Positions 1-29,097 of a stretch of DNA of 64,000 nt are shown piece after piece. A program made the position numbers and the translations under genes. Source of the DNA: Escherichia coli (GTDB lineage: Bacteria; Pseudomonadota; Gammaproteobacteria; Enterobacterales; Enterobacteriaceae); the NCBI RefSeq assembly GCF_022846255.1, contig NZ_AP025682.1. One strand, written 5' to 3'. The notes below the pieces were generated by a model. It did no database searches. It was given only the letters and a program-made list of their open reading frames with translations, and had not been told where the DNA came from. Position 1 is the stretch's first letter. Every line of letters starts with the position of its first letter.

Positions 1-792
1 AACCTGGACTGGTGGGAGCATTCCGAACGGCGTCAGCGGTTCAAACAGCTTCTGCGCGAACAGGAGCAGATCGATGCCGACGAGGTGATCATGTCGCCAC
101 AGCGGGCACGGGAGCGCGGCCTGACCTCAACGATCACTTTCCCGGTGGGCAATATTGCCCCGGAAGGGTCGGTTATCAAATCCACCGCCATCGATCCCTC
201 GGTGATTGATGATCGGGGCATCTATTACCATAAAGGCGTGGCGAAGGTTTATCTGTCCGAGAAAAGCGCGATTTACGATATCAAGCACGAGAAGATTAAA
301 GCGGGCGATATTCTGGTCATCATCGGCGTTGGCCCTTCCGGCACCGGGATGGAGGAAACCTACCAGGTCACCAGCGCCCTGAAACATCTGTCCTATGGCA
401 AGCATGTTTCACTGATCACCGATGCGCGTTTCTCGGGTGTTTCCACGGGAGCCTGTATCGGCCACACAGGGCCAGAAGCACTGGCCGGAGGGCCAATCGG
501 TAAATTACGCACCGGAGATATTATTGAAATTAAAATTGATTGTCGCGAGCTTCAGGGCGAAGTCAATTTCCTCGGAACCCGTAACGATGAAACATTACCC
601 TCACGGGAGGAGGCCACCGCAATATTAAACGCCCGACCCAGTCATCAGGATTTACTTCCTGATCCTGAACTGCCAGATGATACCCGACTCTGGGCGATGC
701 TCCAGGCGGTAAGCGGCGGGACATGGACGGGTTGTATTTATGATGTAAATAAAATCCGCACGGCCTTGCGCGATTATATGAATAAAAACTGA
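1..792 (+). CDS. Sugar-acid dehydratase, IlvD/EDD family, C-terminal part (5' end lies outside window)
   Basis: Frame 1 is open from base 1 to the stop at 792; translation has the IlvD/EDD C-terminal signature (RFSGVSTGACIGHTGPEALAGGPIGKLRTGDIIEIKID), resembling YjhG/YagF-type xylonate dehydratases. Confidence 0.75.
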   Translation, partial: NLDWWEHSERRQRFKQLLREQEQIDADEVIMSPQRARERGLTSTITFPVGNIAPEGSVIKSTAIDPSVIDDRGIYYHKGVAKVYLSEKSAIYDIKHEKIKAGDILVIIGVGPSGTGMEETYQVTSALKHLSYGKHVSLITDARFSGVSTGACIGHTGPEALAGGPIGKLRTGDIIEIKIDCRELQGEVNFLGTRNDETLPSREEATAILNARPSHQDLLPDPELPDDTRLWAMLQAVSGGTWTGCIYDVNKIRTALRDYMNKN

Positions 793-898
793 AAGCAAAA
801 ATAAAAATATCCAGACGCCTGAATTATCCGGTTACGCATTATTCATCCTGTGCGCAGCCGGATAATGACGGCTCGTTACCCTATAATGAGAGGACGTT

Positions 899-2248
899 AT
901 GCCACTAATTATCGTTGTGGCAGGGATTGCTTTACTCCTGCTTTTAACCATAAAAATTAAGCTTAATACGTTTGTTTCGTTAATTATTGTCTCGATTGCT
1001 GTCGCCATCGCCAGTGGTATGGATTTGAGTAAAGTCGTCACCTCAGTCGAATCCGGACTTGGCGGTACGCTGGGCCATATTGGTTTGATATTTGGCTTCG
1101 GTGTTATGCTCGGTCGCTTGCTGGCCGATGCGGGGGGGGCGCAGCGAATAGCGCTGACCATGCTGAATTATTTCGGGAAAAATAAACTTGACTGGGCAGT
1201 GGTCTGTTCGGCGTTTATTGTCGGTATCGCACTTTTTTTCGAAGTCGGTTTAATTCTTCTGGTACCTATTTTATTCGCTATTGCCCGTGAAGCAAAAATA
1301 TCACCGATGTTTATGTGTGTGCCGATGCTTTCCGGTTTGCTGGTCGCACACGGTTTTTTGCCGCCGCACCCCGGCCCGACAGTAATCGCCAGAGAATATG
1401 GTGCTGATGTAGGATTGGTACTGATATACGGTATCATTGTCGGCATTCCAACCTTTATTCTTTGCGGCCCGGTATTGAATAAATTCTGCCAGCGCATTAT
1501 TCCGGAAGCCTTTAAAAAAGAGGGGAATATAGCCTCTCTCGGCGCGACCCGCCGGTTCAGCGAAAGCGAAATGCCTGGCTTTGGGATCAGTTTTCTCACG
1601 GCAATGCTGCCGGTGATCCTGATGGCGGTTGTCACCATCATCCAGATGACTCATGCCAAAAGTGCCGCGGATTCAGGCTTATTCTACAACGTGCTACTGT
1701 TCTTAGGTAATTCGACGATCGCCATGCTGATTTCACTGCTGTTCGCGATCTATACCATGGGCCTGGGGCGCGGGAAAACAATCCCTGACCTGATGGATTC
1801 TTGCGGAAAAGCTATCGCGGGTATTGCCGGTCTGCTGCTGATTATCGGTGGTGGTGGTGCATTCAAGCAAGTTCTCATCGACTCTGGCGTTGGTCAGTAT
1901 ATTTCCACCCTGGTTTCGGGTATGGATATTAACCCGATCCTGATGGCCTGGGGCGTGGCCGCATTCCTGCGTATTTGTCTGGGTTCAGCCACCGTCGCGG
2001 CGATCTCTACCGCCGGTCTGGTCATCCCATTGTTGGCAGTACATCCCAATACCAACCTGGCCTTGATTACGCTGGCTACCGGTGCCGGATCCTGTATTTG
2101 TTCTCACGTTAACGATGCCAGTTTCTGGATGATTAAAGACTTTTTTGGCCTGACCACCAAAGAAACGCTGTTATCCTGGACGCTGATGTCCACACTCTTA
2201 TCCATCAGTGGGCTGATTTTTATTCTGCTCACCAGCTTAGTTTTATAA
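899..2248 (+). CDS. GntP-family (gluconate/sugar-acid:H+) permease
   Basis: 449-aa polytopic membrane protein with GntP-family sequence character; RBS-like GAGGA upstream of ATG. Confidence 0.85.
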
Positions 2249-2398
2249 TCGGGTTCTTGCCAGTGAGCCAACCTGTTGTTCACTGTCCCCCATAATTTAG
2301 TGAGTGACGGCAACCGTCTGCACGGTGACGAATCGCTGGCGATCAAAAAGGGGCGATATTGAACCGTCGATTATGCTTGTTGAGTGTACTCTCAGTAA

Positions 2399-2435
2399 TA
2401 CTGTAAAGCCGGAGCATGTCTCCGGCTTTACAGTA
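2399..2435. repeat. Perfect 16-bp inverted repeat with 5-nt loop (TACTGTAAAGCCGGAG-catgt-CTCCGGCTTTACAGTA)
   Basis: Read directly from sequence; lies between GntP gene and regulator gene; no T-tract on either side, so not a canonical intrinsic terminator. Confidence 0.6.
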
Positions 2436-2594
2436 TGGGGGAACAGCGGGCGATCGCTCAAATGGTATGCTGGTTTATTTCATGTAAAAGAATAAAATAT
2501 CTGTATAAAATCATGCCACTGGCAATCTGCATCAACTCTCCGGGTAAACAGGGTTAAGATGAGCATTTCCCCGGTTTAATACAGGTATACAAAA

Positions 2595-3581
2595 GTGGAT
2601 AGAGATCAAACAAACAGCAGCCTGTTCAATGATGATCCCGTGCTTCATGCAACATGGCTGTACTATCAGGAAGGCAAAAGCCAGACTGAAGTTGCAGCTA
2701 TCATGGGGGTGTCCCGCGTCACGGTTGTCAAATACCTGCAAACAGCCCGGGAAAATGGACTGGTTCATATCAACCTGGATGTGAATGTCTTTGGCTCTAT
2801 CGACGCTGCTTTGCAAATTCGCGATAAATTCAATCTCCTGAGAGTGATCATCGTGCCGGATGGCGAACATGCCGGAAAACGTGATGATACAAAGCTGATG
2901 CGGACTCGCCTTTCACGTGCCGGTGGCATGTATCTGAATCAGGTGATTGAGAATGGTGATGTGCTGGGGGTTGCCTGGGGAAGAACAATCCATCAGATGA
3001 GCAAAACCATGACGCCGAAGTCATGTAAAAATGTCACCGTTATACAGATGCTCGGTTCCATGCCATCTCAGCCAGACCTGACGATCATTGAATCCTCATC
3101 GCAAATCGCCTACAAGCTTTCAGGCCGTGTCGCTTCGCTGCACGTGCCCGCCGTGGTATCAAGCGCCAGACTGGCCATGGAGTTACAGGCAGAGCCTATT
3201 ATTCGATCGAATTTTGACGTTCTGACTCGCTGTACGAAAGCCTTTTTTGTCGTGGGTAACACGCTTGATGAAAATCCCCTGATTCGGGTGGGCGTGCTGA
3301 ATAAGAAGGAAATGCAGACGTATCGAGATTTAGGCGCAGTAGGTGTCATTTGTGGCCGCTTCTATGACAAGGAAGGGATGCCCGTCGTGGCTGATGTTGA
3401 CCAGCGTATTCTGGGAATCAGTCTGGCTCAGTTAAGGCAGATTGAACGGAAGATCTTTCTTGCTGGTGGCGAAAGAGGCTATGACGCAACGTTGGGTGCC
3501 CTGCTGGGAGGATATGTCACTGACCTGATTGTTGATGAAGGAACGGCAGAGTTTTTGCTGGCGTGTGAATTACCACACTAA
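2595..3581 (+). CDS. SorC/DeoR-family transcriptional regulator (N-terminal HTH, C-terminal sugar-phosphate-binding domain)
   Basis: 328 aa; HTH segment SQTEVAAIMGVSRVTVVKYLQTARENGLV followed by a SorC-type effector domain. Confidence 0.8.
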   Translation: MDRDQTNSSLFNDDPVLHATWLYYQEGKSQTEVAAIMGVSRVTVVKYLQTARENGLVHINLDVNVFGSIDAALQIRDKFNLLRVIIVPDGEHAGKRDDTKLMRTRLSRAGGMYLNQVIENGDVLGVAWGRTIHQMSKTMTPKSCKNVTVIQMLGSMPSQPDLTIIESSSQIAYKLSGRVASLHVPAVVSSARLAMELQAEPIIRSNFDVLTRCTKAFFVVGNTLDENPLIRVGVLNKKEMQTYRDLGAVGVICGRFYDKEGMPVVADVDQRILGISLAQLRQIERKIFLAGGERGYDATLGALLGGYVTDLIVDEGTAEFLLACELPH

Positions 3582-3591
3582 AAGAATGAAC

Positions 3592-3626
3592 TACTGCCCC
3601 ATGTGGATATGGGGCAGGATTTTATT
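3592..3626. terminator. Hairpin between convergent genes (candidate bidirectional terminator)
   Basis: CTGCCCCAT...ATGGGGCAG stem followed by GATTTTATTG; sits between the stop of the regulator (+) and the stop of the transporter (-). Confidence 0.5.
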
Positions 3627-4626
3627 GATTAGCGGCGATAATAAGAACAATACCCACAATGTATGAAATAAACATAGTCAGCAGCAGTTTATTGGTTCCG
3701 GCTGGCGCACTGGCAAATTCTCTCCAGATGAAGACTCCCCAGATCACGGCAATCATTGTGGCACCCTGTCCCAGACCGTAGGAAATGGCATAACCCGCCT
3801 GACCAGACGCAATCAAACTGAATGCCAGACCGACACACCAAATCATACCGCCCAGCCAGCCGCAAACATGATCCCGTAAACTCCCGGAAAAATACATTTT
3901 CCTGTTGACAGGTTCTCCTGAAATAGGCTTTTTCATGACCAGCGTGTTAAGGACAAAGTTCGACAAAAACAGCCCCACGGCAAACAGAACAAGTGCTGAG
4001 TACGGCGTCATCAGACCGCTGGCAGGCTGGCTGAAATTGTCAGACATGGAGTCCGCCAGGAAGCGGAAAAACCATCCCATGATGATACCCGCAAGAATGG
4101 CAGTGATGAGGCCTTTGTTACGGCGAGATTTATCCGCCTCCTGCGTGACACGGCCATAGGCTATCGCGGTAAAAATAATGGCGATCACAACGCAGGCGAC
4201 ACCGAGGAACAGAATGAGCGGATCGCCCTGCGGATTGCCGATATAGGTGGTGATCACACCCAGAGCCAGTGCCAGCCCCACCCCCACAGGAAAAGCTACC
4301 GCCATACCGGCAAGATTAATAGAAGCCACCAGAAGAATATTGGAAATATTGAAGATAATCCCTGCCAGTATTGCCGACATCAGACTACTGTTGCTCGCCT
4401 GCTGAATATCAGGTATAAAGCTGCGACCGGCTTCGCCCATAGAACCCAGAGTGAAGGCAAATAACAAAGAACACAGCAATAATCCAATTGAATAATCCCA
4501 ATAGAATAGAGGGAACTCCCATTTTTTATTACTGACAAGTTTAGTTGTATTCGCCCATGAACCCCAGCAAATCATAGTAATAAAACACATTATTATGGCG
4601 ACAGCATACGATTCCACGATAAACAT
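3622..4626 (-). CDS. Sugar transporter, DMT superfamily (GRP/RhaT/GlcU-like), about 10 TM helices
   Basis: 334-aa hydrophobic protein with two-half internal repeat architecture typical of RhaT/GlcU-type sugar permeases; last gene of the kinase-isomerase-aldolase operon. Confidence 0.7.
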   Translation of the reverse strand: MFIVESYAVAIIMCFITMICWGSWANTTKLVSNKKWEFPLFYWDYSIGLLLCSLLFAFTLGSMGEAGRSFIPDIQQASNSSLMSAILAGIIFNISNILLVASINLAGMAVAFPVGVGLALALGVITTYIGNPQGDPLILFLGVACVVIAIIFTAIAYGRVTQEADKSRRNKGLITAILAGIIMGWFFRFLADSMSDNFSQPASGLMTPYSALVLFAVGLFLSNFVLNTLVMKKPISGEPVNRKMYFSGSLRDHVCGWLGGMIWCVGLAFSLIASGQAGYAISYGLGQGATMIAVIWGVFIWREFASAPAGTNKLLLTMFISYIVGIVLIIAANQ

Positions 4627-4729
4627 AAATAACTCCTTGTGGTAGTTATAATCAATCGTTGTGGACAGAGGGCATAACAGCCATTCCTCGAATGGCTGTT
4701 ATATGTTATTAATTAAAATAAAGCTGTAA

Positions 4730-5371
4730 TTACGCTTTCAAACCATACGTTTTGAATTTTTCAAGAACGATGGTCATTTCGGCTTCAGACAGAACGGGAA
4801 CATCGTGATGTAATCCGCCACATTTGATGTATAAATCAGCCAGCGTCTCAGTTTCACCCGCCAGCCACAACGTCTTTTCCAGCGTGACGTCCATGGCCAG
4901 CATACCGTGGTGCTGCATCAGCAAGGACTTACTTTCTCTGATTCCTTGAGATACACTGTCGGCCAGTTCAGGGCTGCCAAAGGTATAATAGGGAATACAG
5001 GGAATATGATCCGTCCCCGATACCGCCACCATATAATGAATAGCCGGAATTGAATGATTATGTATTGCCACCGCCGTGGAATTCACCGCATGCGTATGTA
5101 TGACAGCATTCAATTCTGGTCTGGCTTTATAACACGCCAGATGAAATAGCCATTCACTTGATGGTATTTTACCCGCTTCAGGTATTCCCTTATCGTCTAC
5201 AAAGACAATCATGTCCGGCGTCATCTTTGAATAAGCGATCCCACTCGGTGTAATCAACATGCCACCGGTATATCTGGCACTCACATTACCTGATGTTCCT
5301 TGATTCAGACCTGACGCATTCATTTCCCGACAAATGGAAATGATATTTTCTGCTAACTTAATCCTTTCCAT
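4730..5371 (-). CDS. Class II (metal-dependent) aldolase, FucA/AraD fold; candidate 5-deoxyribulose-1-P / methylthioribulose-1-P aldolase
   Basis: 213 aa, class II aldolase/adducin-domain size and histidine-rich motifs (HTHAVNSTAVAIHNH); positioned downstream of the MtnA-like isomerase. Confidence 0.8.
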   Translation of the reverse strand: MERIKLAENIISICREMNASGLNQGTSGNVSARYTGGMLITPSGIAYSKMTPDMIVFVDDKGIPEAGKIPSSEWLFHLACYKARPELNAVIHTHAVNSTAVAIHNHSIPAIHYMVAVSGTDHIPCIPYYTFGSPELADSVSQGIRESKSLLMQHHGMLAMDVTLEKTLWLAGETETLADLYIKCGGLHHDVPVLSEAEMTIVLEKFKTYGLKA

Positions 5372-5401
5372 TACTGCTCCTTAACAGAAGTGATCGTCGT
5401 T

Positions 5402-6517
5402 TTAATGCAGCTCGTCCTGGAGTGCTTTACTCTTCAGGTCAGCAAACATATCCGCCAGAGCTGACTTACTGGCAGCACAGACTCCCCGTTCAGTAATGAG
5501 GCCGGTAATGTATCGGGCAGGCGTGACGTCGAAAGCGTAGTTCTCACAACGGGTTCCTTCAGGGGCGGTATTGACCCAGCTCAATTCTCCCTGAGTATTT
5601 ATCCCATAGACATGGGACTGCTCTTTTCCGTCACGTTGCTCAATCGGAATGGTTTTTCCGTCCTCGATAGTCCAGTCAATAGTGGGAGAAGGTAGCGCGA
5701 CGTAGAAGGGAACATGGTTATCATGGGCCGCCAGCGCCTTAAGATAGGTACCAATTTTATTACAGACATCCCCTCTGGCCGTGGTTCGATCGGTCCCCAC
5801 TATACAGAGATCAACGTCACCGTGTTGCATCAGGTGGCCACCCGCATTGTCGGCAATCAGGGTGTGAGGAATACCGTGTGAACCCAGTTCAAATGCCGTG
5901 AGTCCACCCTGATTACGTGGCCGCGTTTCATCCACCCAGACGTGAACAGGGATTCCGTTTTCATGCGCTTTATAGATGGGAGAAAGCGCGGTTCCCCAGT
6001 CTACGGTCGCCAGCCAGCCTGCGTTACAATGTGTCAGGATATTGACCACACTCCCGGCCGATTTTTTCTGGGCTATTTCGCGGATGACTTCTGCACCATG
6101 TAATCCAATTTGTTCGCACAACGCGACATCTTCCTCGGCAATTTCTGCCGCCAGCGCCCAGGCCACATCCTTGCGCTCTGATACACAGAGATCCTTCAGT
6201 GTGGCTATCATCCTGTCGAGAGCCCATTTGAGGTTAATTGCAGTTGGTCGGGTTTTGATAAGAAGGTCATAGTAACGCTGCAGACCTACGTCACTGGCAT
6301 TGTGGTTCATTCCCAGTGCGATACCATATGCCGCAACGACACCAATAAGCGGGGCGCCACGAACCCACATCTCCTGAATAGCCGCAGCGGCCATTTCCGC
6401 AGAGGTAAGCGCCACCACTTCAAACTTAAAAGGCAGCTTAGTCTGATCGATGATCTCTACCGCTTTTCCATCCCCGGAAACCCAGACCGTTCGGTAGTGT
6501 TTACCTTTAATATTCAT
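5402..6517 (-). CDS. mtnA: S-methyl-5-thioribose-1-phosphate isomerase family protein (eIF-2B alpha/beta/delta-like); candidate 5-deoxyribose-1-P isomerase
   Basis: 371 aa; translation shows MtnA/eIF-2B-type isomerase character; stop is 9 bp from the upstream kinase gene. Confidence 0.8.
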
Positions 6518-6526
6518 AATGACCTC

Positions 6527-7786
6527 TTACTTAACCTTCGCAGACTGGATGACGGAGTCCATATTTTTAAACTGGCGGGCATTGACAATAAGATCGCGCG
6601 CCATGGTCAATGCACGTCGTTCACATTCTGCGCGAAGCTCTGTATTTTCAATCTGTTTCAGCTCGGCAACGCCAGCAAAACCAATGATCCGGCGATTCAT
6701 TTCCATGCCGGCATTCACCAGGGAATCTTCAAGCAGCGTGGCAAAAAACTGATCCTGTGCGTCCTCAAGAGCGGCCCTGTTCTGTTGATACATTTCTGTC
6801 GGCCACGCGTCACCCTGTGTTTTGTTGTCCCAGAGCTGGCGGAACTCCCGGGTGAAAACTGACCAGGTGTGGACAATCTGCTGAAGTAGCCATTCCTGAT
6901 AGTCAGCGCGACGTTGCTCATTTGCATCCCACCCAGGGCGTGAGAAGAACGCCAGCAGGAGGTTGCCAATATAGTTGCCGATATCAAACGCCATTGGTCC
7001 CATGAAACCGAACTCCGGATCAATCACTTTGGTATCCGTGTCGGTCACCATGATTGAGCCTGAATGAAGGTCACCATGTAACAATGCCTGCGCTTCTGTC
7101 ATAAATTTGTACTTATAACGCATGGCAACCTGGAGCATCTCTACATCAGCCCAGGCCTTATGGACGGCATCGTCCAGCTCAGGAGAAGTCCAGTTATTCC
7201 GTTCCGCGTTGTAATAGGGCTCTGTGAAGATCAGATCTTCCGTAATTTTGCACAGCTCATGATTCAACGCGAACTCAGCAGTAAGCGCTTTTTTCTGTTC
7301 TGCTGACATGCCAATGTCAGACGTATTAAAGAGAGTCTGTGCTAAAAATCTGCCGATATCTTCAGCTAGCTTAGGGAATTTTTTACCGTTAATCAGTCCC
7401 TTACGCAGAATTACGTGAGGCGTCAAATACTCCATGGCAAACAGTGCCATTTCCGGGTCATAAAAATAGACCTGGGGAATCAGTGTGTGACCCGCGTACT
7501 TGGCTTCCTGACATAAGACGTTGTACTCAAAGCCCGCACGGCTCAGAGATAAAGGCCATCCTTCGCCCCCTGCACGAAGCCAGGGCAGAGCTTGTTTTAC
7601 AATGATGGTTTTATGTGTCCCCTTAACGATAAACACCATGTTCAGGTTTCCGTCCCCCACTTCTGAAACTTTCCACTCTTCTGGTAACCCTCCCGGTTCG
7701 CATGAAGGGGTCAGTCTGGACGAGAGATAACCAGGCAGCGTGTCACATGTCAGCGGCTTGTAACCTGATGGAATTGAATCCGTCAT
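6527..7786 (-). CDS. mtnK: Methylthioribose kinase family protein (MtnK-like); candidate 5-deoxyribose kinase
   Basis: 419 aa with the MtnK/aminoglycoside-kinase-fold catalytic motif HGDLHSGSIM and DPEFGFMGPMAFDIG; first gene of a kinase-isomerase-aldolase-transporter operon. Confidence 0.8.
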   Translation of the reverse strand: MTDSIPSGYKPLTCDTLPGYLSSRLTPSCEPGGLPEEWKVSEVGDGNLNMVFIVKGTHKTIIVKQALPWLRAGGEGWPLSLSRAGFEYNVLCQEAKYAGHTLIPQVYFYDPEMALFAMEYLTPHVILRKGLINGKKFPKLAEDIGRFLAQTLFNTSDIGMSAEQKKALTAEFALNHELCKITEDLIFTEPYYNAERNNWTSPELDDAVHKAWADVEMLQVAMRYKYKFMTEAQALLHGDLHSGSIMVTDTDTKVIDPEFGFMGPMAFDIGNYIGNLLLAFFSRPGWDANEQRRADYQEWLLQQIVHTWSVFTREFRQLWDNKTQGDAWPTEMYQQNRAALEDAQDQFFATLLEDSLVNAGMEMNRRIIGFAGVAELKQIENTELRAECERRALTMARDLIVNARQFKNMDSVIQSAKVK

Positions 7787-7810
7787 AACAGTTCTCCTTA
7801 TCTACACAGA

Positions 7811-7850
7811 ATGATAACTGACTTATCATATGGCAACTATACTTTATCAT
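7811..7850. promoter_or_regulatory. Candidate operator: palindrome ATGATAA-ctgac-TTATCAT plus a third TTATCAT half-site 13 bp away, 25-60 bp upstream of the mtnK-like start
   Basis: Read from sequence at 7811-7829 and 7843-7850, in AT-rich promoter region of the operon. Confidence 0.35.
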
Positions 7851-8291
7851 GTGTAAAGTAATTTGTGATGCATGTAGATTTTTTGAACTGGAGAAAATTA
7901 AAAATAATGTTGTATGGAGTCATGATCTTTACAGGAATTAGTAGGGTGCATTCCTGTTATTTATATAAAATTCATTGTATTACATAAAAATGACGGTGCT
8001 GCGCGGGGAATTGTCTCGGGCAATCTTAGACGAAAGGAAGTATTGAAGTGACAGAATAATCTACATTTTTTATACATGTGTATTTTTCTGTTGTCTTTTG
8101 TTTTTAGCGTATGGTGTTTTTATGCCGATGTCTAATAGACAGATAGATTCGAGGGCCAACAGCCCCATTATCATGATGGAGCAACAGAGGTGAGTCTAAC
8201 GTTTCCGTACTTCTTATCGATCGGCACTAACAATCCTTTGTGATAACGGTATTCCCACACAGAGAAACCCACGTACCTGAATAAAAAAAAG

Positions 8292-8720
8292 ATTACTGGT
8301 GTGGAAATGGGATTAACAGATTATGCCATCAAATCGGATGGTAATGAGGTCAATAATCCTCGTCATCTCATTAACGTCAACTGTAATCTGCGACGCAAAT
8401 TAGCCAGCATGATGAATAATAAACACAATCTGGCAAGAGCGTTAGGTGATGCTGATTGGCACGGCTTTATCAACAAACTGGAGTACAAGGCAGCCGAAAA
8501 AGGCGTTCATCTGGTAAAAATCGACCAGTAGTTTGTCTGTTCGAAAAGCTGCTATTGTTGTGGTTACAAAATGTTGCTTCAAAAACGGATCTGGCGATGC
8601 CCTGAATGCGGTGTTGAACATGACCGGGATATAAATGCGGCAATCAACATAAAACTTAAAGACATACAGGAATTAAAGGCGGCGGGCCCCGTCGTCTCTG
8701 TCTATGGAGGAGCTGCGTAA
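8292..8720 (+). pseudogene. IS200/IS605-family TnpB (RNA-guided nuclease) remnant: C-terminal fragment with internal frameshift/deletion
   Basis: Translation ITGVEMGLTDYAIKSDG...ARALGDADWHGFINKLEYKAAEKGVHLVKID matches the TnpB RuvC region; the zinc-finger segment RCPECGVEHDRDINAAINI follows in another frame; N-terminal ~200 aa absent. Confidence 0.6.
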
Positions 8721-8984
8721 ACCCGTCGTACAGACGGTTGCAGCCTGAAAAGTGGGAAGGCCTTGCCCGATTGGGCGGGGAGTAGTCACCCTTGGAGTCA
8801 TTTTTATCCGGTGTATTAATATGCTCCTAATAGTTAATCTGGTTATAATATTTTTTTTTTGATTATGATCACGAAAATATCTCGGTTTTTATTTGCAAAA
8901 CTTGAAACGTGAATCCAAAAAAGATAAATATTTGTCCGCAGTGACTTCTTTTCTGTTGAAAAGTTCAATCTAAAGGGCAAAAAA

Positions 8985-10097
8985 ATGAAAAAAATTACAG
9001 TGGCACTTTCTGTGGTTGCGGCATCTGTTCTGATGGCAATGTCTGCACAAGCGGCAGAAATCTATAACAAAGACGGTAACAAACTGGATCTGTACGGCAA
9101 AGTTAATGCAGAGCATTACTTCTCTTCTTCAGCTAGTGATGACGGGGATAAAACTTATGCTCGTATGGGTTTCAAAGGTGAAACTCAGATTAATGACCAG
9201 TTAACCGGTTTTGGTCAGTGGGAGTACGAATTTAAAGGTAACCGTACTGAAACTGAAGGTTCTGATAAAGATAAAACTCGTCTTGCGTTTGCAGGGCTTC
9301 GCTTTGGCGATTATGGTTCGCTCGACTATGGTCGCAACTACGGTGTAGCTTATGATGTTGGCGCTTGGACTGACGTGCTGCCGGAGTTTGGTGGAGATAC
9401 CTGGACTCAGACTGATGTATTTATGACCCAGCGTGCTACTGGCGTAGCGACCTATCGTAACAATGATTTCTTCGGCTTGGTTGATGGTCTGAACTTTGCT
9501 TTGCAGTATCAAGGTAAAAATGATAGTGCTGCAAAAGTGAATAACTGGAAAGGCCGTGACGAAGTTGAATCTAATGGTGATGGCTTTGGTCTGTCAGCTA
9601 CTTACGATTATGAGGGATTTGGCGTTGCTGCAACCTATGCAAAATCTGACCGTACTGATGGGCAGGTATCCTATGCTAAAGACAGCCCTCTGAATGCCTC
9701 TGGTAAAACTGCTGAAGTATGGGCTACGGGCCTGAAATATGATGCAAACAACATTTACCTGGCTGCAACTTATTCTGAAACTCAGAATATGACAGTCTTC
9801 GGTGATGACCATATCGCAAACAAAGCGAAAAACTTTGAAGCTGTTGCTCAATACCAGTTTGATTTCGGCTTGCGTCCGTCCATCGCTTACCTACACTCTC
9901 GCGGTGAAAATATTGGTGCGTTCGGTAACCAGGATCTAGTTGAATACATCGACGTAGGTGCGACTTATTACTTCAACAAAAATATGTCCGCTTTCGTTGA
10001 CTACAAGATCAACCTGATTGATGAAAGTGAATTTACCAAAGCATCTGAGGTTGCAACCGACAACATCGTTGCTGTTGGTATGACCTACCAATTCTAA
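8985..10097 (+). CDS. General bacterial porin, OmpC/OmpF/PhoE (GBP) family, divergent paralogue
   Basis: 370 aa; signal peptide ending [20 protein letters not shown], internal [25 protein letters not shown]-terminal YQF typical of 16-strand porins. Confidence 0.9.
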
Positions 10098-10253
10098 TTT
10101 TGGTAGGTAAGAATATGCGGGAAGGGAGTGATGTCACTGCCCGCATATAGGTGGCACCCTCATGCCACCTTTGAAGAGGCAATTTTATTGCCTCTTCTCA
10201 ATTTAACTTCATGTTATTTATTACCCTTTTATTGATTTGAAACTCTATTGTTG

Positions 10254-22036: not shown

Positions 22037-22609
22037 AGAGAATGGGTATTGTATTCAATTAGTTTAGGAGCTTAAGCTATCGGGGGTAATGCTGATTTAT
22101 TGGCAGTTGTGTACGTATTAGCGCTGCTTTTGCCGTAATACCCAGTAGTTCTTTCCAGCATAACTACAACTGAATGATACCAAAAATACATCTCAAGCTT
22201 TTTATCTTAGTCTTTCTATGATGACAATATTGAAAACTTCAGGATAATTAAAAGGTTAGTATTAATGAAAGTCCTTACATTTAAGCATCTTCTCTCTAAA
22301 CATATTTTCCTTAGAATCGGGGGCCTCAGTATTTAAAATCTTCCAGAGGTGTAATATTCAGCTTTGCTGTGACAACATCGAGAATGGTAAAAATTGATAA
22401 TATATCCTCTGAATATCAGGATGACTACGTTATAATGTATATGAGTTGGATTTGATTAGTTTCAAGGAAAGTGAAATGTGTGAAATAAGTACCAGACCAG
22501 TAGAACAGTAATTAAATACCGGAAAGCAAAGGGGGGAGGGGCGTGCTGACTGCATCTAAAATGAGACTATTACGCCCAGACATAGAGGGAAATAGCCAGT
22601 AGAGTACTT

Positions 22610-23386
22610 TTATTTGTTGGGGGGGGCCTGCTGATCCGTTTCACCAGTTGAGTTTGCAGCTGGAAGTTCTTTTGTCTTTGCTGTATCAATTGATTTGATT
22701 TGTTCGATGGCAGTTATATTACCTGACATTGCTTCATTGAGCACTTCTACTGCCCTACGGGCATCACGATCCTTGATCGACATGTAGACCTTGATATGAG
22801 CTTCCACACTCTCTAGGGTGATACCTAGCGCACGGTTAAGCTCTTCAAGATAGTAGTAATAGATGTCTTTAATCGAGTTCATCACGTTATAGAACACGCT
22901 GTTGTGTGATGCTCTGACTATTGCCAGATGGAACTCGTAATCCGCTTCCGAATACTTTTTGTAGTCCCCCTTATTGATCAACATATTATTCAGAGCTTCT
23001 TCGAGCTGGCGAATGTCGTCGTCGGTGGCGTGAGTGACAGCGAGTTCCACGCATTTGAACTCCACGGTCTGACGGAAAATCATCATATCGTGAAACTCTT
23101 CGCGGCTAAGGTGCATGATAGGACGTGGATCGTTACTCAACATTTGCGGGGTGAAGTTTGTGCTCACGTAGCTGCCACAGCCCTGACGTGTCACAACAAT
23201 CCCCAAGGTGCGAAAGCGCTGAACCGCACTACGTACACTGACCCGGCTTACATTAAATGAGTTGGCCAGCTCTAATTCTGAGGGCAAACGGCTACCTGGT
23301 GGCCAGCTGCCGTCCAGCAGTTTTCCACTTATTTGATCATAAACTTCATTTACAACATTCTGTTTCTGAATGGATTTTATGCTCAA
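22610..23386 (-). CDS. GntR-family regulator (FadR subfamily, FCD effector domain)
   Basis: 258 aa; N-terminal GntR winged HTH (LPSELELANSFNVSRVSVRSAVQRFRTLGIVVTRQGCGSYV); C-terminal codons include an 8-nt homopolymer. Confidence 0.85.
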   Translation of the reverse strand: MSIKSIQKQNVVNEVYDQISGKLLDGSWPPGSRLPSELELANSFNVSRVSVRSAVQRFRTLGIVVTRQGCGSYVSTNFTPQMLSNDPRPIMHLSREEFHDMMIFRQTVEFKCVELAVTHATDDDIRQLEEALNNMLINKGDYKKYSEADYEFHLAIVRASHNSVFYNVMNSIKDIYYYYLEELNRALGITLESVEAHIKVYMSIKDRDARRAVEVLNEAMSGNITAIEQIKSIDTAKTKELPAANSTGETDQQAPPNK

Positions 23387-23464
23387 GATGGGGTCCGAAG
23401 TCAGTTTAGATAAGCCAATAATATATCATCTTTAAAATCAAAGCGCCCAAGTGGGCGCCCTATA

Positions 23465-24751
23465 TTAACAAGTTTGTGCTTTTGCTTCAGTGGATTTTTT
23501 AGTGCTAAACGAGGTGAGTGAGGTGAGCAACACTGCCACAACCAGCGAAGCACTCATAAAGACATAAGAAGCACCTGGATCGCCCGTTAATCCATTCAGA
23601 TAACCGACAATCCATGAACCAACGAATGAGCCCAGAGCACCGAAACTTACGATAAATGCCATCGCACCAGCCATCACATTACGAGGGATAATTTCTGGTA
23701 TTGCGGCAAAGAATGGTCCGTAAGGTGTATACATCGCGCCACCTGCAACCATCAACAGGATATACGAGAGCCAAAAGTTGGATTCTCCAACGGTAAACGA
23801 ACCAATAAAGCAGAACGCACCCAATCCTAAAAACAGAAGAACAATGATTTTACGGTTCATAAATTTATCTGAATACCAAGACGCGCCGAGCATAAGTGAT
23901 ACAGCTAATAAGTAGGGTGCTGCTGATAGCCAACCTATTGCTACGATGCTTAATTCAGATGCTGATTTCAAAATAGACGGTAGCCACATAATAAATCCAT
24001 ACATCCCAATATTCCAGAAGAAGTGGATAAATGAGAGTGATAAGACTTTGCCTGAACGAAATGCTTCGCTGTAGTTTTTAATTTCTTTAATATTGGTTTG
24101 CTCTGCCGCAAGTGCCGCTTCTATATCTTTTTTTTCGTGCTCTGTTAACCAGGTTGCATCTGTGGGGCGATCAACAAAGACAAACCACCAGATAACTGCC
24201 CAAATGATGGCAGGGATGCCTTCGATAATAAACATACCACGCCAGCCAAAGGAGTCCACGAGATAGCCTGATAGCACTGACATCCAGAGTACTGTTATGG
24301 GGTTGCCAAGAAAAAGGAAGGTGTTAGCTTTCGACCTTTCTTTCTTAGTGAACCAATGGCTCAGGAAAACAAGCATGGCAGGCATCACAACGCTTTCAGC
24401 CACGCCGAGTAAGAAGCGAATGACCGCTAGGACCTTAACGTCGTGGACCATGCCGGTCGCTGTCGCTAGTATTCCCCACAGAATTAAGCTCCAAAAAATA
24501 AGCTTCTTGGCACTTCTTTTTTCAGCATAAATCCCTCCAGGTACCTGAAAGAAAAAATATCCAAGGAAGAACAGTGCACCCAGTAGTGAGGAAATCCCTG
24601 GTGTAATATTGAGATCCTCAGCCAGACCGGAGGCAGCACCAAAGCCATAATTAGCGCGATCAAGATAGGCAAGGCTATACGTAATAAATGCCAGCGGGAT
24701 CAACTTACGCCAGCGAATCGGCGCTAATTTTTTATGTATATTCTGAACCAT
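23465..24751 (-). CDS. MFS transporter, anion:cation symporter (ACS) family (hexuronate/aldonate-type, ExuT/DgoT-like)
   Basis: 428 aa; N-terminal region LAFITYSLAYLDRANYGFGAASGLAEDLNITPGISSLLGALFFLGYFFFQVPGG typical of ACS-family sugar-acid permeases. Confidence 0.8.
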   Translation of the reverse strand: MVQNIHKKLAPIRWRKLIPLAFITYSLAYLDRANYGFGAASGLAEDLNITPGISSLLGALFFLGYFFFQVPGGIYAEKRSAKKLIFWSLILWGILATATGMVHDVKVLAVIRFLLGVAESVVMPAMLVFLSHWFTKKERSKANTFLFLGNPITVLWMSVLSGYLVDSFGWRGMFIIEGIPAIIWAVIWWFVFVDRPTDATWLTEHEKKDIEAALAAEQTNIKEIKNYSEAFRSGKVLSLSFIHFFWNIGMYGFIMWLPSILKSASELSIVAIGWLSAAPYLLAVSLMLGASWYSDKFMNRKIIVLLFLGLGAFCFIGSFTVGESNFWLSYILLMVAGGAMYTPYGPFFAAIPEIIPRNVMAGAMAFIVSFGALGSFVGSWIVGYLNGLTGDPGASYVFMSASLVVAVLLTSLTSFSTKKSTEAKAQTC

Positions 24752-24806
24752 GATGTTTTCCCATTTAATTACTGCAGTTCGTATAACGAATGTCAGTAGA
24801 TGTTAA

Positions 24807-25574
24807 TTACAGCACCGCGAGCCACCCACCATCAACGTAAATAATTTGTCCATTGATATAATCTGATGCTTTGGATGATAAGAAGATGGCAGTTCCGATG
24901 AGTTCCTCTGGATGTCCCCAACGTTGGGACGGGTTGCTGTTTTTCACCCAAGAATCGAAGTGTTTGTCTTCGATAAGCGCAGTGTTCATGTCGGTGAGAA
25001 TGTAGCCCGGTCCAATGGCATTGGTCTGAATATTAAACTGTGCCCATTCTGCGGCCATTGAACAGGTAAGCATTTTGATGCCGCCTTTTGCTGCCGTGTA
25101 TGGAGCAACTGTTGGACGTGCGGCCTGGCTAGTGAGTGAACCGATATTAATGATTTTGCCACCGCGTTTATGGTCAATCATCCGCTTTGCCGCCGCGCGG
25201 GACACGAGAAATGCACTAGTTAAGTTCGTGTCGATCACCTTCTGCCAGTTTTCCAACTCCAGTTCAACCATCGGTTTGCGGTACTGAATACCAGCGTTAT
25301 TAATCAGGATATCAATACTGATCCCTTGCGCATCAAGTTGACTAAAAGCTGATTCAATCGCTTGTTCATTGGTGACGTCAAAAGCCACACCGTGCGCATC
25401 GTAACCCTTGCTTGTCAGAGACTTTACTGCTTCTGCCAGCAACGTGTCGCGAATATCATTCAGGATGACTCGAGCACCCGCAACGGCAAGTCCCTCTGCA
25501 TAGGCAAGGCCCAGTCCACGTGCTGCACCTGTTACCAACGCCGTTTTCCCCGTTAAATCAAATAAAGCGTTCAT
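24807..25574 (-). CDS. SDR-family oxidoreductase, gluconate 5-dehydrogenase (IdnO/Gno)-like
   Basis: 255 aa; TGAARGLG cofactor motif, catalytic YTAAK, high similarity in pattern to IdnO/KduD-type dehydrogenases. Confidence 0.85.
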   Translation of the reverse strand: MNALFDLTGKTALVTGAARGLGLAYAEGLAVAGARVILNDIRDTLLAEAVKSLTSKGYDAHGVAFDVTNEQAIESAFSQLDAQGISIDILINNAGIQYRKPMVELELENWQKVIDTNLTSAFLVSRAAAKRMIDHKRGGKIINIGSLTSQAARPTVAPYTAAKGGIKMLTCSMAAEWAQFNIQTNAIGPGYILTDMNTALIEDKHFDSWVKNSNPSQRWGHPEELIGTAIFLSSKASDYINGQIIYVDGGWLAVL

Positions 25575-25909
25575 ATTGTTTCCTCATGCATTTGTGTTGT
25601 ATGACAACTACCTTTTAAAAGGTAGGGGGTTCGCTACGACAAAAGCAACAATGTGCCCATGAATTTGCAACATGGATCACAAATAGCTTTGTGCAATGAT
25701 TGATGGTCTTATTTAATTTATTGAATTATATGGTGTAATATTTATATTGATGAGCATGGTTTGATCACTGTCACAGAATGGCGTTCGCAACGATCACTTG
25801 CAAATGAAGCGTGATATAACAATGTTGGTTGTAGGACAACCTACATGTTGTGTTGTTCATAACGATATGGATATGGCATACGAGAAAATTACTGAGCTGA
25901 GGTGTAAAA

Positions 25910-27163
25910 GTGAGTAGCCTGAAAATAACTAACGTGAAGACGATTCTGACGGCACCAGGCGGCATTGATTTAGCGGTCGTGAAAGTCGAGACCAACGAGC
26001 CAGGACTATACGGGTTGGGATGTGCAACATTTACTCAGCGTATCTTTGCAGTAAAAAGCGCAATCGATGAATACATGGCACCTTTCCTGATTGGGAAAGA
26101 TCCTACTCGTATTGAAGATATCTGGCAGTCGGGTGCGGTGAGTGGCTACTGGCGTAGTGGTCCCATTATGAACAATGCGTTGTCTGGTGTGGACATGGCA
26201 CTGTGGGATATCAAAGGTAAACTGGCGGGGATGCCGGTTTATGACTTGCTGGGTGGCAAATGCCGTGATGGTATCCCACTATACTGTCATACCGACGGTA
26301 GCGATGAAGTTGAAGTAGAAGATAACATCCGTGCCAGAATGGAAGAGGGTTACCAGTATGTTCGCTGCCAGATGGGCATGTACGGCGGCGCGGGGACTGA
26401 TGACCTTAAACTGATCGCTACGCAGTTGGCGCGAGCGAAGAACATTCAGCCGAAGCGTTCGCCCCGCAGCAAAACGCCCGGTATCTACTTTGATCCGGAT
26501 GCCTACGCCAAAAGCGTTCCACGTTTGTTTGATCACCTGCGTAACAAGCTGGGATTTGGCATTGAATTTATTCATGATGTGCACGAGCGTGTCACCCCTG
26601 TGACCGCTGTTAACCTGGCTAAAACGCTCGAACAATATCAGCTGTTTTATCTTGAAGATCCGGTGGCACCTGAAAACATCGACTGGTTGAAAATGCTGCG
26701 TCAGCAGTCTTCCACTCCGATATCCATGGGTGAACTGTTTGTAAATGTGAATGAGTGGAAACCGCTCATCGACAATAAACTCATCGACTACATTCGCTGC
26801 CACGTGAGTACTATTGGTGGCATTACACCGGCGAAAAAACTTGCGGTCTACAGCGAGTTGAACGGTGTGCGAACCGCATGGCATGGGCCGGGCGATATTT
26901 CTCCGGTCGGGGTCTGCGCTAATATGCATCTGGACTTGAGTTCACCGAACTTTGGTATTCAGGAATACACGCCAATGAACGACGCGCTGCGTGATGTATT
27001 TCCGGGCTGCCCTGAGATTGACCGCGGTTATGCCTATCTGAACGAGAAGCCGGGTCTGGGGATTGAGATTGATGAAGCTAAAGCGGCAAAATACCCGTGT
27101 GAGGGTGGGATACCGTCGTGGACGATGGCGCGTACACCTGACGGTACTGCCTCAAGACCATAA
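25910..27163 (+). CDS. Enolase-superfamily sugar-acid dehydratase, D-mannonate dehydratase (ManD)/RspA-like
   Basis: 417 aa from GTG start with AGGTG RBS; mandelate racemase/muconate-lactonizing-enzyme fold character (MALWDIKGKLAGMPVYDLLGG). Confidence 0.8.
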   Translation: MSSLKITNVKTILTAPGGIDLAVVKVETNEPGLYGLGCATFTQRIFAVKSAIDEYMAPFLIGKDPTRIEDIWQSGAVSGYWRSGPIMNNALSGVDMALWDIKGKLAGMPVYDLLGGKCRDGIPLYCHTDGSDEVEVEDNIRARMEEGYQYVRCQMGMYGGAGTDDLKLIATQLARAKNIQPKRSPRSKTPGIYFDPDAYAKSVPRLFDHLRNKLGFGIEFIHDVHERVTPVTAVNLAKTLEQYQLFYLEDPVAPENIDWLKMLRQQSSTPISMGELFVNVNEWKPLIDNKLIDYIRCHVSTIGGITPAKKLAVYSELNGVRTAWHGPGDISPVGVCANMHLDLSSPNFGIQEYTPMNDALRDVFPGCPEIDRGYAYLNEKPGLGIEIDEAKAAKYPCEGGIPSWTMARTPDGTASRP

Positions 27164-27534
27164 GTAATGAAGGGCCCGGTTTGCAGTTGCCGGGTCTGTC
27201 TCCTGTTCCCAGAGTTTTATTTATCTTCATCACTTACAGAGAATGCTCAACATTTGCTAGTCTTTTCCTGTCCAGGTATCCAAAGTCTCCTCCCAAATAT
27301 CCTGGATACTGGCTTAGACAAAATGAGATTATATTTTATAGTAAATTATATCATAACAGCTTTTGTTAAGGATGCTGTGTAAGATAAGATATATGGGTTA
27401 GAGGCATATTCTTTTGCAATCAGGAAGAAGATAATCACTGATGTTATCGGATATGTAGTAGTATTCGGTATAGCTATTTAGAGAAATTTGTGCCACAATT
27501 TATTATAGAGTTTAAAGAAAAATATATTGAAAAT

Positions 27535-27560
27535 AAAATCCGGGCTATTGCCCGGATTTT
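27535..27560. terminator. Hairpin terminator just past the integrase stop (T-rich on both strands)
   Basis: AAAATCCGGGC-tatt-GCCCGGATTTT, flanked by T-runs. Confidence 0.6.
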
Positions 27561-27561
27561 A

Positions 27562-29021: not shown

Positions 29022-29097
29022 TGGTGCCCGGACTCGGAATCGAACCAAGGACACGGGGATTTTCAATCCCCTGCTCTACCGACTGAGCTATCCGGGC
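29022..29097 (-). tRNA. pheV: tRNA-Phe (GAA anticodon)
   Basis: Reverse complement reads GCCCGGATAGCTCAGTCGGTAGAGCAGGGGATTGAAAATCCCCGTGTCCTTGGTTCGATTCCGAGTCCGGGCACCA, the canonical E. coli tRNA-Phe. Confidence 0.95.

Follow-up and report, generated by a model that had tools for sequence, protein, structure and literature searches.

The window analysed here, the whole 64,000-nucleotide stretch of Escherichia coli DNA, very probably carries the E. coli DHAP shunt operon, mtnK-mtnA-ald2-permease, together with its repressor, MtnR (YjhU). This operon lets some strains grow on 5-deoxyribose (5dR) and similar sugars left over as waste from S-adenosylmethionine metabolism. The enzymes and pathway of the five-gene arrangement in E. 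coli ATCC 25922 are said to have been set out by North 2020. The operon is already published, and what sets the present copy apart from those described is minor; its single unusual feature is its residence in the pheV island instead of at leuX. The content, order, and intactness of the genes, the families and motifs of their products, their near-identity to the leuX-type copy, and the pheV location are all directly observed.

The original prediction placed four co-oriented, closely spaced genes at 3622-7786, and the ends of four intact minus-strand ORFs in the window's ORF list match that interval exactly. In gene order, these are mtnK (6527-7786; 419 aa), for a 5-methylthioribose/5-deoxyribose kinase; mtnA (5402-6517; 371 aa), for the corresponding 1-phosphate isomerase; ald2 (4730-5371; 213 aa), for a class II aldolase assigned to 5-deoxyribulose-1-phosphate and methylthioribulose-1-phosphate; and a DMT/GRP-type permease gene (3622-4626; 334 aa), with intergenic gaps of 9, 30, and 103 bp. 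The convergent SorC-family regulator of the same prediction is yjhU (mtnR; 2595-3581, plus strand; 328 aa), whose stop codon lies 40 bp from that of the permease gene. All five genes equal their E. coli SE15 counterparts in length, without frameshift. A GC-rich hairpin found by terminator scan between the convergent stops (3594-3617; 10-bp stem, 6 GC pairs, T-run on the plus strand) is kept in SE15 and K-12, and is likely a bidirectional terminator. A second hairpin, at 4674-4702 on the minus strand within the 103-bp ald2-permease spacer, has a perfect 13-bp stem with no T-run after it in the terminator scan. Folding of the spacer gives -25.1 kcal/mol (z = -4.3), a stability matched by 0 of 200 shuffled sequences, and Providencia retains the stem with a C-G to T-A change.

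Linkage to pheV was also borne out. The only tRNA gene in the window, identified with ARAGORN, is pheV, a tRNA-Phe (GAA) at 29022-29097 on the minus strand; from exactly position 29022 onward the sequence is homologous to K-12, through yqgA, speC, nupG, and mutY. A P4-type integrase ORF (27562-28824) lies beside pheV, and the operon is 21 kb away. At a threshold of at least 80% coverage, 1083 of the 5426 complete E. coli genomes (~20%) carry the locus, and the operon-pheV junction is common to only 12 of the 5426. In published accounts, the cluster is located “invariably” at the leuX island end. Thus, of the earlier question as to whether this arrangement had been described, the answer is divided: the five-gene arrangement is published for ATCC 25922, while the pheV location is not described.

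Window positions 1-8235 are colinear with E. coli SE15 at 95.7% DNA identity (blastn), with only 85-87% at the 3′ end of yjhG, and the five proteins are 96.8-99.4% identical. SE15 shares the 799-bp upstream region and the neighbouring ORF, WP_000788354, given for ATCC 25922 (PMC12632272). Homology to the leuX type stops at 8235, leaving 449 bp of that upstream region (7787-8235, minus strand); beyond it lie a TnpB/InsQ pseudogene (annotated as such in near-identical genomes), an ompC-like porin gene, and an IS3 element. The allele is divergent relative to the leuX type, with ~96% identity in DNA and 85% in the promoter. The yjhG-yjhF-yjhU block, in which yjhF (899-2248, plus strand) encodes a GntP-family permease (TIGR00791, 652 bits), travels with the operon, and SE15, K-12, and Citrobacter sp. 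On2M share its order. Conservation of the whole five-gene module, regulator included, extends to Providencia rettgeri (77-87% amino acid identity) and contig L011; in Citrobacter sp. On2M, gene order as judged from ORF sizes is also the same, and the promoter is near-identical.

Each of the predicted enzyme families was recovered with NCBIfam models. The kinase scores 521 bits against the MtnK equivalog TIGR01767 (cut-off 275), carries the motifs GDGNLN (44), HGDLH (237), and DPEF (256), and is identical to SE15 MtnK at 413 of 419 residues. Its best PDB relatives are the 5-methylthioribose kinases 2pyw (339 bits) and 2olc (243 bits), rather than unrelated aminoglycoside or homoserine kinases. 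The isomerase reaches 411.6 bits against the MtnA model TIGR00512 (cut-off 279) and 463 bits against NF004326, has the MtnA structures 1t9k and 2yrf/2yvk as its PDB relatives, and matches SE15 MtnA at 359 of 371 residues. A translation-factor-like protein is not indicated in this case, since the catalytic motifs THCNAG (Cys165) and GTDR (Asp243) are kept and the score lies far above those of eIF2B models. Finally, Ald2 (209/213 residues identical to SE15) exceeds the cut-off of the class II aldolase subfamily NF005984 (361 versus 264 bits).

The fourth gene encodes a DMT-type permease, as predicted, with Pfam matches in the DMT clan to Ureide_permease (PF07168, 2.4e-10) and Sugar_transport (PF06800, 2e-6); RefSeq names it “GRP family sugar transporter”. 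Orthologues with 85-88% identity likewise follow ald2 in Providencia rettgeri and contig L011, and another is assumed, by size and position, in the 334-aa ORF after ald2 of Citrobacter sp. On2M. More distant homologues (58-72% identity) adjoin PfkB sugar kinases, and one Bacteroidota locus of this group has a nucleoside hydrolase beside the permease gene, which together fit a ribofuranose-type substrate. In ATCC 25922, the permease gene is co-transcribed and co-induced with mtnK-mtnA-ald2 (PMC12632272). It is apparently not strictly needed, since K-12 supplied with the three enzyme genes alone grows on 5 mM 5dR (PMC10986504). The protein is best regarded as a putative importer of 5-deoxypentoses.

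In the proposed pathway, 5′-deoxyadenosine (5dAdo) and 5′-methylthioadenosine (MTA) would be cleaved by the housekeeping nucleosidase Pfs, encoded elsewhere, and 5-deoxyribose or 5-methylthioribose (MTR) would enter the cell, probably aided by the permease. MtnK would then phosphorylate the sugar at C1, MtnA would isomerise the product to a 1-phospho-ketose, and Ald2 would split this into DHAP and acetaldehyde or 2-methylthioacetaldehyde, with DHAP and acetaldehyde passing to central metabolism. Uptake and catabolism of exogenous 5-deoxypentoses beyond mere internal salvage, as originally proposed, has been shown for the near-identical ATCC 25922 locus (PMC10986504, PMC12632272). Specifically, 5dR, 5dAdo, and MTA can each serve that strain as sole carbon source, and their use depends on mtnK-mtnA-ald2 (PMC10986504). 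Enzyme activities, too, have been shown by others for the proteins of ATCC 25922-type strains, to which those encoded here are 96-99% identical. Its four genes form one operon, induced ~7.5 log2-fold on 5dR, that requires CRP, for which binding was shown, and is under catabolite control (PMC12632272). We infer that the present, divergent allele behaves like the ATCC 25922-type operon; expression would be off in glucose because of CRP dependence, and off without substrate because MtnR represses.

Other roles for the cluster were weighed, beginning with the aldolase. RefSeq labels Ald2 “L-fuculose-phosphate aldolase”, and the protein shares 58% identity with E. coli FucA and retains every catalytic residue (His92/His94/His155, Glu73, Tyr113), which might suggest degradation of a 6-deoxyhexose. 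However, Ald2 falls below the cut-off of the FucA equivalog TIGR01086 (314.7 versus 400.25 bits), its neighbours are genes for MtnK and MtnA with no fucose isomerase or fuculokinase nearby, and the promoter is not induced by fucose (PMC12632272), making this reading extremely improbable. Ald2 also lies below the MtnB model TIGR03328 (66 versus 137 bits) and, judged by these profiles, is a class II aldolase but neither a FucA nor an MtnB equivalog. This bears on a role in sulfur (methionine) salvage from MTA rather than carbon catabolism: MtnK and MtnA, so named by NCBIfam, are the first two methionine salvage enzymes, and a DHAP shunt serves sulfur salvage in Rhodospirillum rubrum and Rhodopseudomonas palustris (PMC12632272), but genes of the mtnB/C/D type are absent from the locus, and both CRP dependence and 5dR induction are marks of a carbon-catabolic operon (PMC12632272). 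MTA and MTR are also reported not to support growth of ATCC 25922 as sole sulfur source, and PMC10986504 states that MTA sulfur is not significantly recycled in this strain and accumulates as 2-methylthioethanol. Sulfur salvage is accordingly considered quite improbable. Slightly less probable still is detoxification of an inhibitory build-up of 5dR or 5dAdo, as proposed for drdK-drdI-drdA of Bacillus thuringiensis; the Bacillus pathway uses the same chemistry, Ald2 is detectably related to the B. thuringiensis aldolase structure 6btd (118 bits), and this role is cited for that organism in PMC12632272. Yet deletion of mtnK-mtnA-ald2 from ATCC 25922 left sensitivity to MTA, 5dAdo, and 5dR unchanged, and 4 mM 5dR was not inhibitory (PMC10986504), while linkage to an uptake-type permease and CRP control point to nutrition. 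PMC10986504 ascribes to the ATCC 25922 shunt neither significant sulfur salvage nor a detoxification role.

A further alternative accepts the same pathway but holds that regulation differs in the pheV-linked allele, where divergence of the promoter and loss of one half-site of the proposed MtnR operator may have left expression partly derepressed or hard to induce. YjhU matches the SorC-type models for Bacillus DeoR and LsrR below their cut-offs (NCBIfam), its Providencia orthologue carries PF04198 (Sugar-bind), and in ATCC 25922 the protein, renamed MtnR, represses promoter P1 (PMC12632272). Promoter activity in that strain was mapped to 66-126 bp upstream of mtnK (PMC12632272), and the P1 start reported at 72 bp upstream would correspond to about position 7858 here. 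The 126-bp promoter region (7787-7912, minus strand) is identical to SE15 at 107 positions (85%), compared with 95-98% DNA identity in the coding regions. SE15 and two Citrobacter sequences retain the candidate MtnR palindrome, CAAAT-N8-ATTTG, in full, whereas the present allele has CAAAT-N8-ACATG, a change in the right arm through which regulation could differ; three positions also differ in the higher-scoring CRP-like site of PMC12632272. Against this, a six-sequence alignment finds promoter blocks conserved across genera at TCACA (7868-7864), TTTACA (7857-7852), TGATAA (7849-7844), and TATAGT (7841-7836), of which TCACA, TTTACA, TGATAA, and TAT, invariant across four genera, are intact. Moreover, the functional-looking module of contig L011 has the same ACATG arm, MtnR differs from its SE15 counterpart at just 2 of 328 residues, and the palindrome is a proposed MtnR site only (PMC12632272). 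Altered regulation is thus unlikely, albeit the least improbable of these alternatives, and an operon under the control described for ATCC 25922 is preferred.

Among known systems, the closest is the leuX-island operon of ATCC 25922 and ST131-type ExPEC, which has the same five genes in the same order, orientation, and lengths, and shares the yjhG-yjhF-yjhU neighbours on one side. The leuX-type copy sits at the leuX island end, whereas the present locus lies in the pheV island, where the truncated upstream region (449 of 799 bp) gives way to the pseudogene, porin gene, and IS3 element noted above, and where the promoter is altered, as is the right arm of the candidate palindrome. The drdK-drdI-drdA cluster of B. 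thuringiensis carries out the same three reactions, by kinase, 1-phosphate isomerase, and class II aldolase, to yield DHAP and acetaldehyde (PMC12632272), but its aldolase is only distantly related to Ald2 (6btd, 118 bits, versus 270 bits for E. coli FucA among PDB matches) and its reported role is detoxification, not growth (PMC12632272). The shunt of R. rubrum and R. palustris (MtnP or MtnN/MtnK, MtnA, and Ald2) follows the same isomerase and aldolase logic, to DHAP and 2-methylthioacetaldehyde; there it is a constitutively expressed sulfur salvage route (PMC12632272), in contrast to the inducible, CRP-dependent carbon pathway of E. coli with its own permease and repressor. Finally, the L-fucose and L-rhamnose pathways of E. 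coli (FucA and RhaD) are analogous, in that a class II aldolase cleaves a ketose-1-phosphate, formed from a deoxy sugar, into DHAP and an aldehyde. The shunt differs from them in its 5-deoxypentose substrates, in an aldolase that resembles FucA yet scores under the FucA equivalog cut-off, and in the order of its steps: the APH-fold MtnK phosphorylates the aldose at C1 and isomerisation follows, the reverse of the fucose pathway, in which isomerisation precedes phosphorylation.

The kinase, isomerase, aldolase and transporter genes of the original prediction are confirmed, since the ends of the open reading frames (ORFs) and the family assignments fit in every detail. The predicted limits coincide exactly with the ends of four minus-strand ORFs: an mtnK-type kinase gene comes first (6527-7786, 419 aa), followed by an mtnA-type isomerase gene (5402-6517, 371 aa), the class II aldolase gene ald2 (4730-5371, 213 aa) and a DMT/GRP-type permease gene (3622-4626, 334 aa), with intergenic gaps of 9, 30 and 103 bp from mtnK to the permease gene. 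A fifth ORF, yjhU/mtnR (2595-3581, plus strand, 328 aa), converges on the permease gene. The two stop codons lie 40 bp apart, and a GC-rich hairpin between them (3594-3617) looks like a bidirectional terminator. As judged from ORF positions, the permease gene as fourth cistron and the convergent yjhU/mtnR match the layout of SE15, the E. coli reference for the leuX-type locus.

The proposed MtnK/MtnA/class II aldolase triad likewise stands, with profile scores above the MtnK, MtnA and NF005984 cut-offs and catalytic motifs that have been kept. The kinase scored 521 bits on the MtnK equivalog TIGR01767 (cut-off 275), has the MTR kinases 2pyw and 2olc as structural relatives, and carries the motifs GDGNLN, HGDLH and DPEF. 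The isomerase scored 411.6 bits on the MtnA equivalog TIGR00512 (cut-off 279), and its THCNAG and GTDR motifs align with MtnA structures; the Cys of the former and the Asp of the latter are presumably the catalytic residues, as in B. subtilis MtnA. The aldolase scored 361 bits on the class II aldolase subfamily model NF005984 (cut-off 264) and fell below the cut-offs of both the FucA equivalog (314.7 vs 400.25) and the MtnB equivalog TIGR03328 (66 vs 137). E. coli FucA is a structural relative at 58% identity, and the aldolase shares with it the zinc ligands His92/94/155 as well as Glu73 and Tyr113. In all matching genomes, RefSeq names the product of 4730-5371 “L-fuculose-phosphate aldolase”. 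This name is misleading, because the score lies below the FucA equivalog cut-off and the orthologue is Ald2, the 5-deoxyribulose-1-P/methylthioribulose-1-P aldolase.

The locus is the published DHAP shunt (5-deoxypentose catabolism) of extraintestinal pathogenic E. coli and is already known. The region 2500-8000 was found at a coverage of at least 80% in 1083 of 5426 complete E. coli genomes, and the annotation in matching genomes is always mtnK, mtnA, L-fuculose-phosphate aldolase, GRP transporter and yjhU. In strain ATCC 25922, growth on 5-deoxyribose, 5'-deoxyadenosine and 5'-methylthioadenosine runs via mtnK-mtnA-ald2, and these three genes are enough for growth of K-12 on 5 mM 5-deoxyribose; in E. 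coli the pathway does not contribute significantly to sulfur salvage and does not serve detoxification (PMC10986504). Regulatory work placed mtnK, mtnA, ald2 and the adjacent permease gene in a single operon, induced about 7.5 log2-fold on 5-deoxyribose, with the convergent yjhU product, renamed MtnR, repressing the primary promoter P1 and with CRP being needed and binding the promoter region (PMC12632272). Growth and enzyme activities have been shown in ATCC 25922 and in K-12 supplied with its genes, and are predicted from sequence for the window allele. In view of the published results on growth, operon structure, MtnR and CRP, the suggestion of an uptake-and-catabolism locus with its own permease and SorC/DeoR regulator is therefore correct and has already been demonstrated (PMC10986504, PMC12632272). 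The pathway makes a carbon source of the universal waste products of S-adenosylmethionine chemistry, and extraintestinal pathogenic E. coli are enriched for it; its importance has been argued in print, and the window therefore adds little to that argument. With the system already characterised genetically and physiologically, permease and regulator included, the residual novelty is modest and consists of a rare pheV location, a diverged promoter, and comparative evidence on the regulator and permease.

With respect to the regulator, YjhU scored 208.7 bits on the Bacillus DeoR model across residues 16-322 and also matched the LsrR model, while a Providencia orthologue, 87% identical, possesses PF04198 (Sugar-bind). 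YjhU thus appears to combine an N-terminal HTH with a Sugar-bind effector domain, as in the SorC family (the “DeoR family” of PMC12632272). The convergent SorC/DeoR regulator that had been predicted is accordingly found as ORF 2595-3581 on the plus strand, with DeoR and LsrR matches, and its repressor function is published (PMC12632272). The regulator is part of the mobile module. In K-12 MG1655 (NC_000913.3, ~11241-11338), IS1F adjoins yjhU, and the 98 bp between them, equivalent to window 3582-3680, retain the terminator hairpin and ~58 bp of the 3' end of the permease gene, cut by the IS1 end. This permease remnant and hairpin beside K-12 yjhU show the gene to be an orphan regulator left behind by an IS1-associated loss of the operon. 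When yjhU was included in the query (window 2500-8000), a match to any part of it was obtained in 1601 of the 5426 genomes. By this count, yjhU/mtnR occurs without the operon in roughly 500 genomes and is missing from most, which is odd given that it has been described as widespread in E. coli.

Both published accounts place the cluster on the leuX island (PMC10986504, PMC12632272), with PMC12632272 adding that it is there “invariably” and “at the end”. The window contains a single tRNA gene, tRNA-Phe (pheV; 29022-29097). Homology to K-12 starts exactly at 29022 and continues through yqgA, speC, nupG, mltC and mutY, this core flank being 96-98% identical to K-12, and a P4-type integrase gene adjoins the tRNA gene. 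The tRNA-Phe gene and the genes of the pheV neighbourhood therefore place the operon 21 kb inside the pheV island, and the predicted pheV linkage is borne out by tRNA-Phe followed by yqgA-speC. Rare as it is, this location contradicts the “invariably leuX” statement, and the cluster also occurs outside the leuX island. The match to the leuX-type upstream DNA breaks off 449 bp before mtnK, and in place of that DNA stand a TnpB pseudogene, an ompC-like porin gene and an IS3 element. This junction is common to 12 of the 5426 genomes, from human, duck, chicken and mink sources, each with one copy of the region; in strain 3CM, the stretch from the operon to pheV-yqgA-speC is annotated in full. A small number of isolates from humans, poultry and mink carry a divergent allele whose promoter is noticeably different. 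No paper naming both pheV and mtnK was found in the literature searched.

An origin-symmetric inversion between the leuX and pheV islands would also bring the operon to pheV. In near-identical genomes, the other side of the block consists of a truncated sgc cluster, IS fragments and unrelated island cargo. The leuX-type locus is flanked by nan-fim, as opposed to an sgc cluster truncated by IS fragments and unrelated cargo, and the inversion was rejected on these grounds; the truncated sgc cluster and the unrelated cargo point to a transferred segment rather than a simple inversion.

Other cargo of the pheV island can be described briefly. Flanked by a TnpB/InsQ pseudogene and an IS3-family element (flanks 8230-8750 and 10351-11501), the extra OmpC-family porin gene (8985-10097) scored 532 bits on the OmpC subfamily model, and its nearest relatives outside the lineage, at 95% DNA identity, are mostly on ~90-135 kb plasmids of many E. 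coli strains. The remainder of the island (11834-28824) holds several small metabolic cargo modules, with the P4-type integrase at the pheV end: an MFS transporter with peptidase T, NhaC with a PatB-type C-S lyase, a CynX-type MFS transporter, and a GntR regulator with a galactonate-type MFS transporter and a ManD-like dehydratase. The closest complete genomes cover only 63% of window 7800-32500, the window having additional DNA within 11834-28824.

The SE15 locus possesses the same 799-bp upstream region and upstream ORF (WP_000788354) as published for ATCC 25922, and is flanked by nan/sgc/yjh genes on one side and leuX-island cargo on the other. Window 1-8235 is colinear with it at 95.7% DNA identity, and the encoded proteins are closely similar (MtnK 413/419, MtnA 359/371, Ald2 209/213, permease 332/334 and YjhU 326/328 identical residues). 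DNA identity varies along the alignment, from 85-87% in window 1-900 (the 3' end of yjhG) to 98-99% in 901-3600 (yjhF-yjhU), 95-98% over the operon and roughly 80% in the distal part of the upstream region, the window copy being a divergent, mosaic allele of the SE15-type module. The step from 85-87% to the adjacent 98-99% suggests that a recombination breakpoint lies close to the yjhG/yjhF boundary.

Divergence extends to the promoter. P1 lies within 126 bp upstream of mtnK, with a candidate MtnR semi-palindrome spanning the -10 element (PMC12632272); this 126-bp region is 85% identical to that of SE15. The published form of the palindrome, CAAAT-N9-ATTTG, had no match near mtnK at up to one mismatch, and its matches across the window were as many as expected by chance. 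On alignment of SE15 with the window, the true spacing proved to be N8, and the window allele turned out to have a mutated right arm, the sequence being CAAAT-N8-ATTTG in SE15 and two Citrobacter and CAAAT-N8-ACATG in the window. Six promoters from four genera were aligned (two E. coli alleles, two Citrobacter, Providencia rettgeri, and L011, an enterobacterial contig with the five-gene module). Invariant among them (window 7827-7875, minus strand) are ACAT-N3-TCACA, with TCACA at 7868-7864, TTTACA (7857-7852), TGATAA (7849-7844) and the TAT that begins TATAGT (7841-7836); a second TGATAA-like hexamer follows 21 bp downstream of the first. Beyond Escherichia and Citrobacter, neither the arms of the palindrome nor the higher-scoring of the two published CRP-like sites is conserved; Providencia and L011 do not have the palindrome. 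That the candidate MtnR palindrome is not kept in otherwise intact modules should help in mapping the MtnR operator.

The text of PMC12632272 places the P1 start 72 bp upstream of mtnK and CRP sites at -35.5 and -17.5. Two CRP-like 16-mers do lie 18 bp apart, as that text has them, and its numbering fits a start ~68 bp upstream and not 72. An alternative reading is a textbook class II layout, in which the TCACA site would be centred ~41.5 bp upstream of a start following TATAGT. The experimentally mapped start is preferred over one derived from sequence numbering. A generic promoter scan of the minus strand upstream of mtnK returned nothing useful. When genome contigs were searched with the conserved promoter motif, 61 loci matched, but only four of them are real relatives (three Citrobacter, one Providencia); the remainder were dismissed as chance matches in AT-rich genomes. 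The promoter differences are best taken as leads for operator mapping, not as conclusions.

A further candidate for regulation lies within the operon. Between ald2 and the permease gene, the 103-bp spacer has a folding energy of -25.1 kcal/mol (z = -4.3) and contains a perfect hairpin with a 13-bp stem (4674-4702) that is followed by no T-run and is thus not a classical terminator. Providencia retains this hairpin, with a compensatory C-G to T-A change, but it was not evident in L011. Acting on the processing or stability of the mRNA, the hairpin may set the enzyme:permease ratio.

The predicted permease beside the triad is a DMT-clan gene in fourth position, in one operon with the enzymes (PMC12632272), where it is termed a permease of unknown function. 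Its Pfam matches are to DMT-clan families alone and are weak: Ureide_permease PF07168 (2.4e-10 and 1.4e-9, one per half) and Sugar_transport PF06800 (2e-6 across residues 75-332). The RhaT model score was far under the cut-off, and a crude Kyte-Doolittle scan gave 8-10 hydrophobic segments, too rough to fix a 10-TMS topology. Placement in the DMT superfamily is safe; the RefSeq product name is GRP family sugar transporter, and membership of that glucose/ribose porter family is at best weakly suggested. Orthologues at 85-88% identity in Providencia rettgeri and L011 keep the five-gene order, including the convergent Sugar-bind regulator, the P. rettgeri module proteins being 77-87% identical to those of the window, and Citrobacter sp. 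On2M carries yjhG-yjhF-yjhU and the operon in unchanged order. At 58-72% identity, homologues from five distant loci (L006, L008, L010, L012 and L013; Aeromonas, Bacteroidota, KSB1 and others) consistently adjoin PfkB-family sugar kinases, with ADP-ribosylglycohydrolase genes in some and a nucleoside hydrolase in the Bacteroidota locus. These PfkB-linked loci apparently represent an uncharacterised ribose-type uptake cassette. Such neighbours would fit a ribofuranose-type sugar transporter, and support, but do not prove, import of 5-deoxyribose and 5-methylthioribose. That K-12 without the permease grows on 5 mM 5-deoxyribose when given mtnK-mtnA-ald2 (PMC10986504) speaks against a strict permease requirement.

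A broader, speculative scenario would have the yjhGFU-DHAP-shunt block be mobile cargo that moves between tRNA-linked islands (leuX to pheV) and genera (Escherichia, Citrobacter and Providencia), the diverged promoter of the rare pheV allele altering control by MtnR and CRP, and the co-transferred DMT permease serving as a dedicated, high-affinity importer of 5-deoxypentoses. All of these parts holding together is rather unlikely. If they did, a widespread and unstudied ribofuranose-transporter subfamily, elsewhere paired with PfkB kinases, would gain its first characterised member in this permease.

Among known systems, the universal methionine salvage pathway continues after MtnA with MtnB, an enolase-phosphatase (MtnC or MtnW/X) and the dioxygenase MtnD. 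No genes for MtnB, MtnC or MtnW/X, or MtnD were found among the ORFs of 1-14000 or the other island genes scanned, and the window locus differs from that pathway in this respect. The closest counterpart is the DHAP shunt operon of PMC12632272, which lies at leuX; the window copy lies in the pheV island, a difference of location and not of function.
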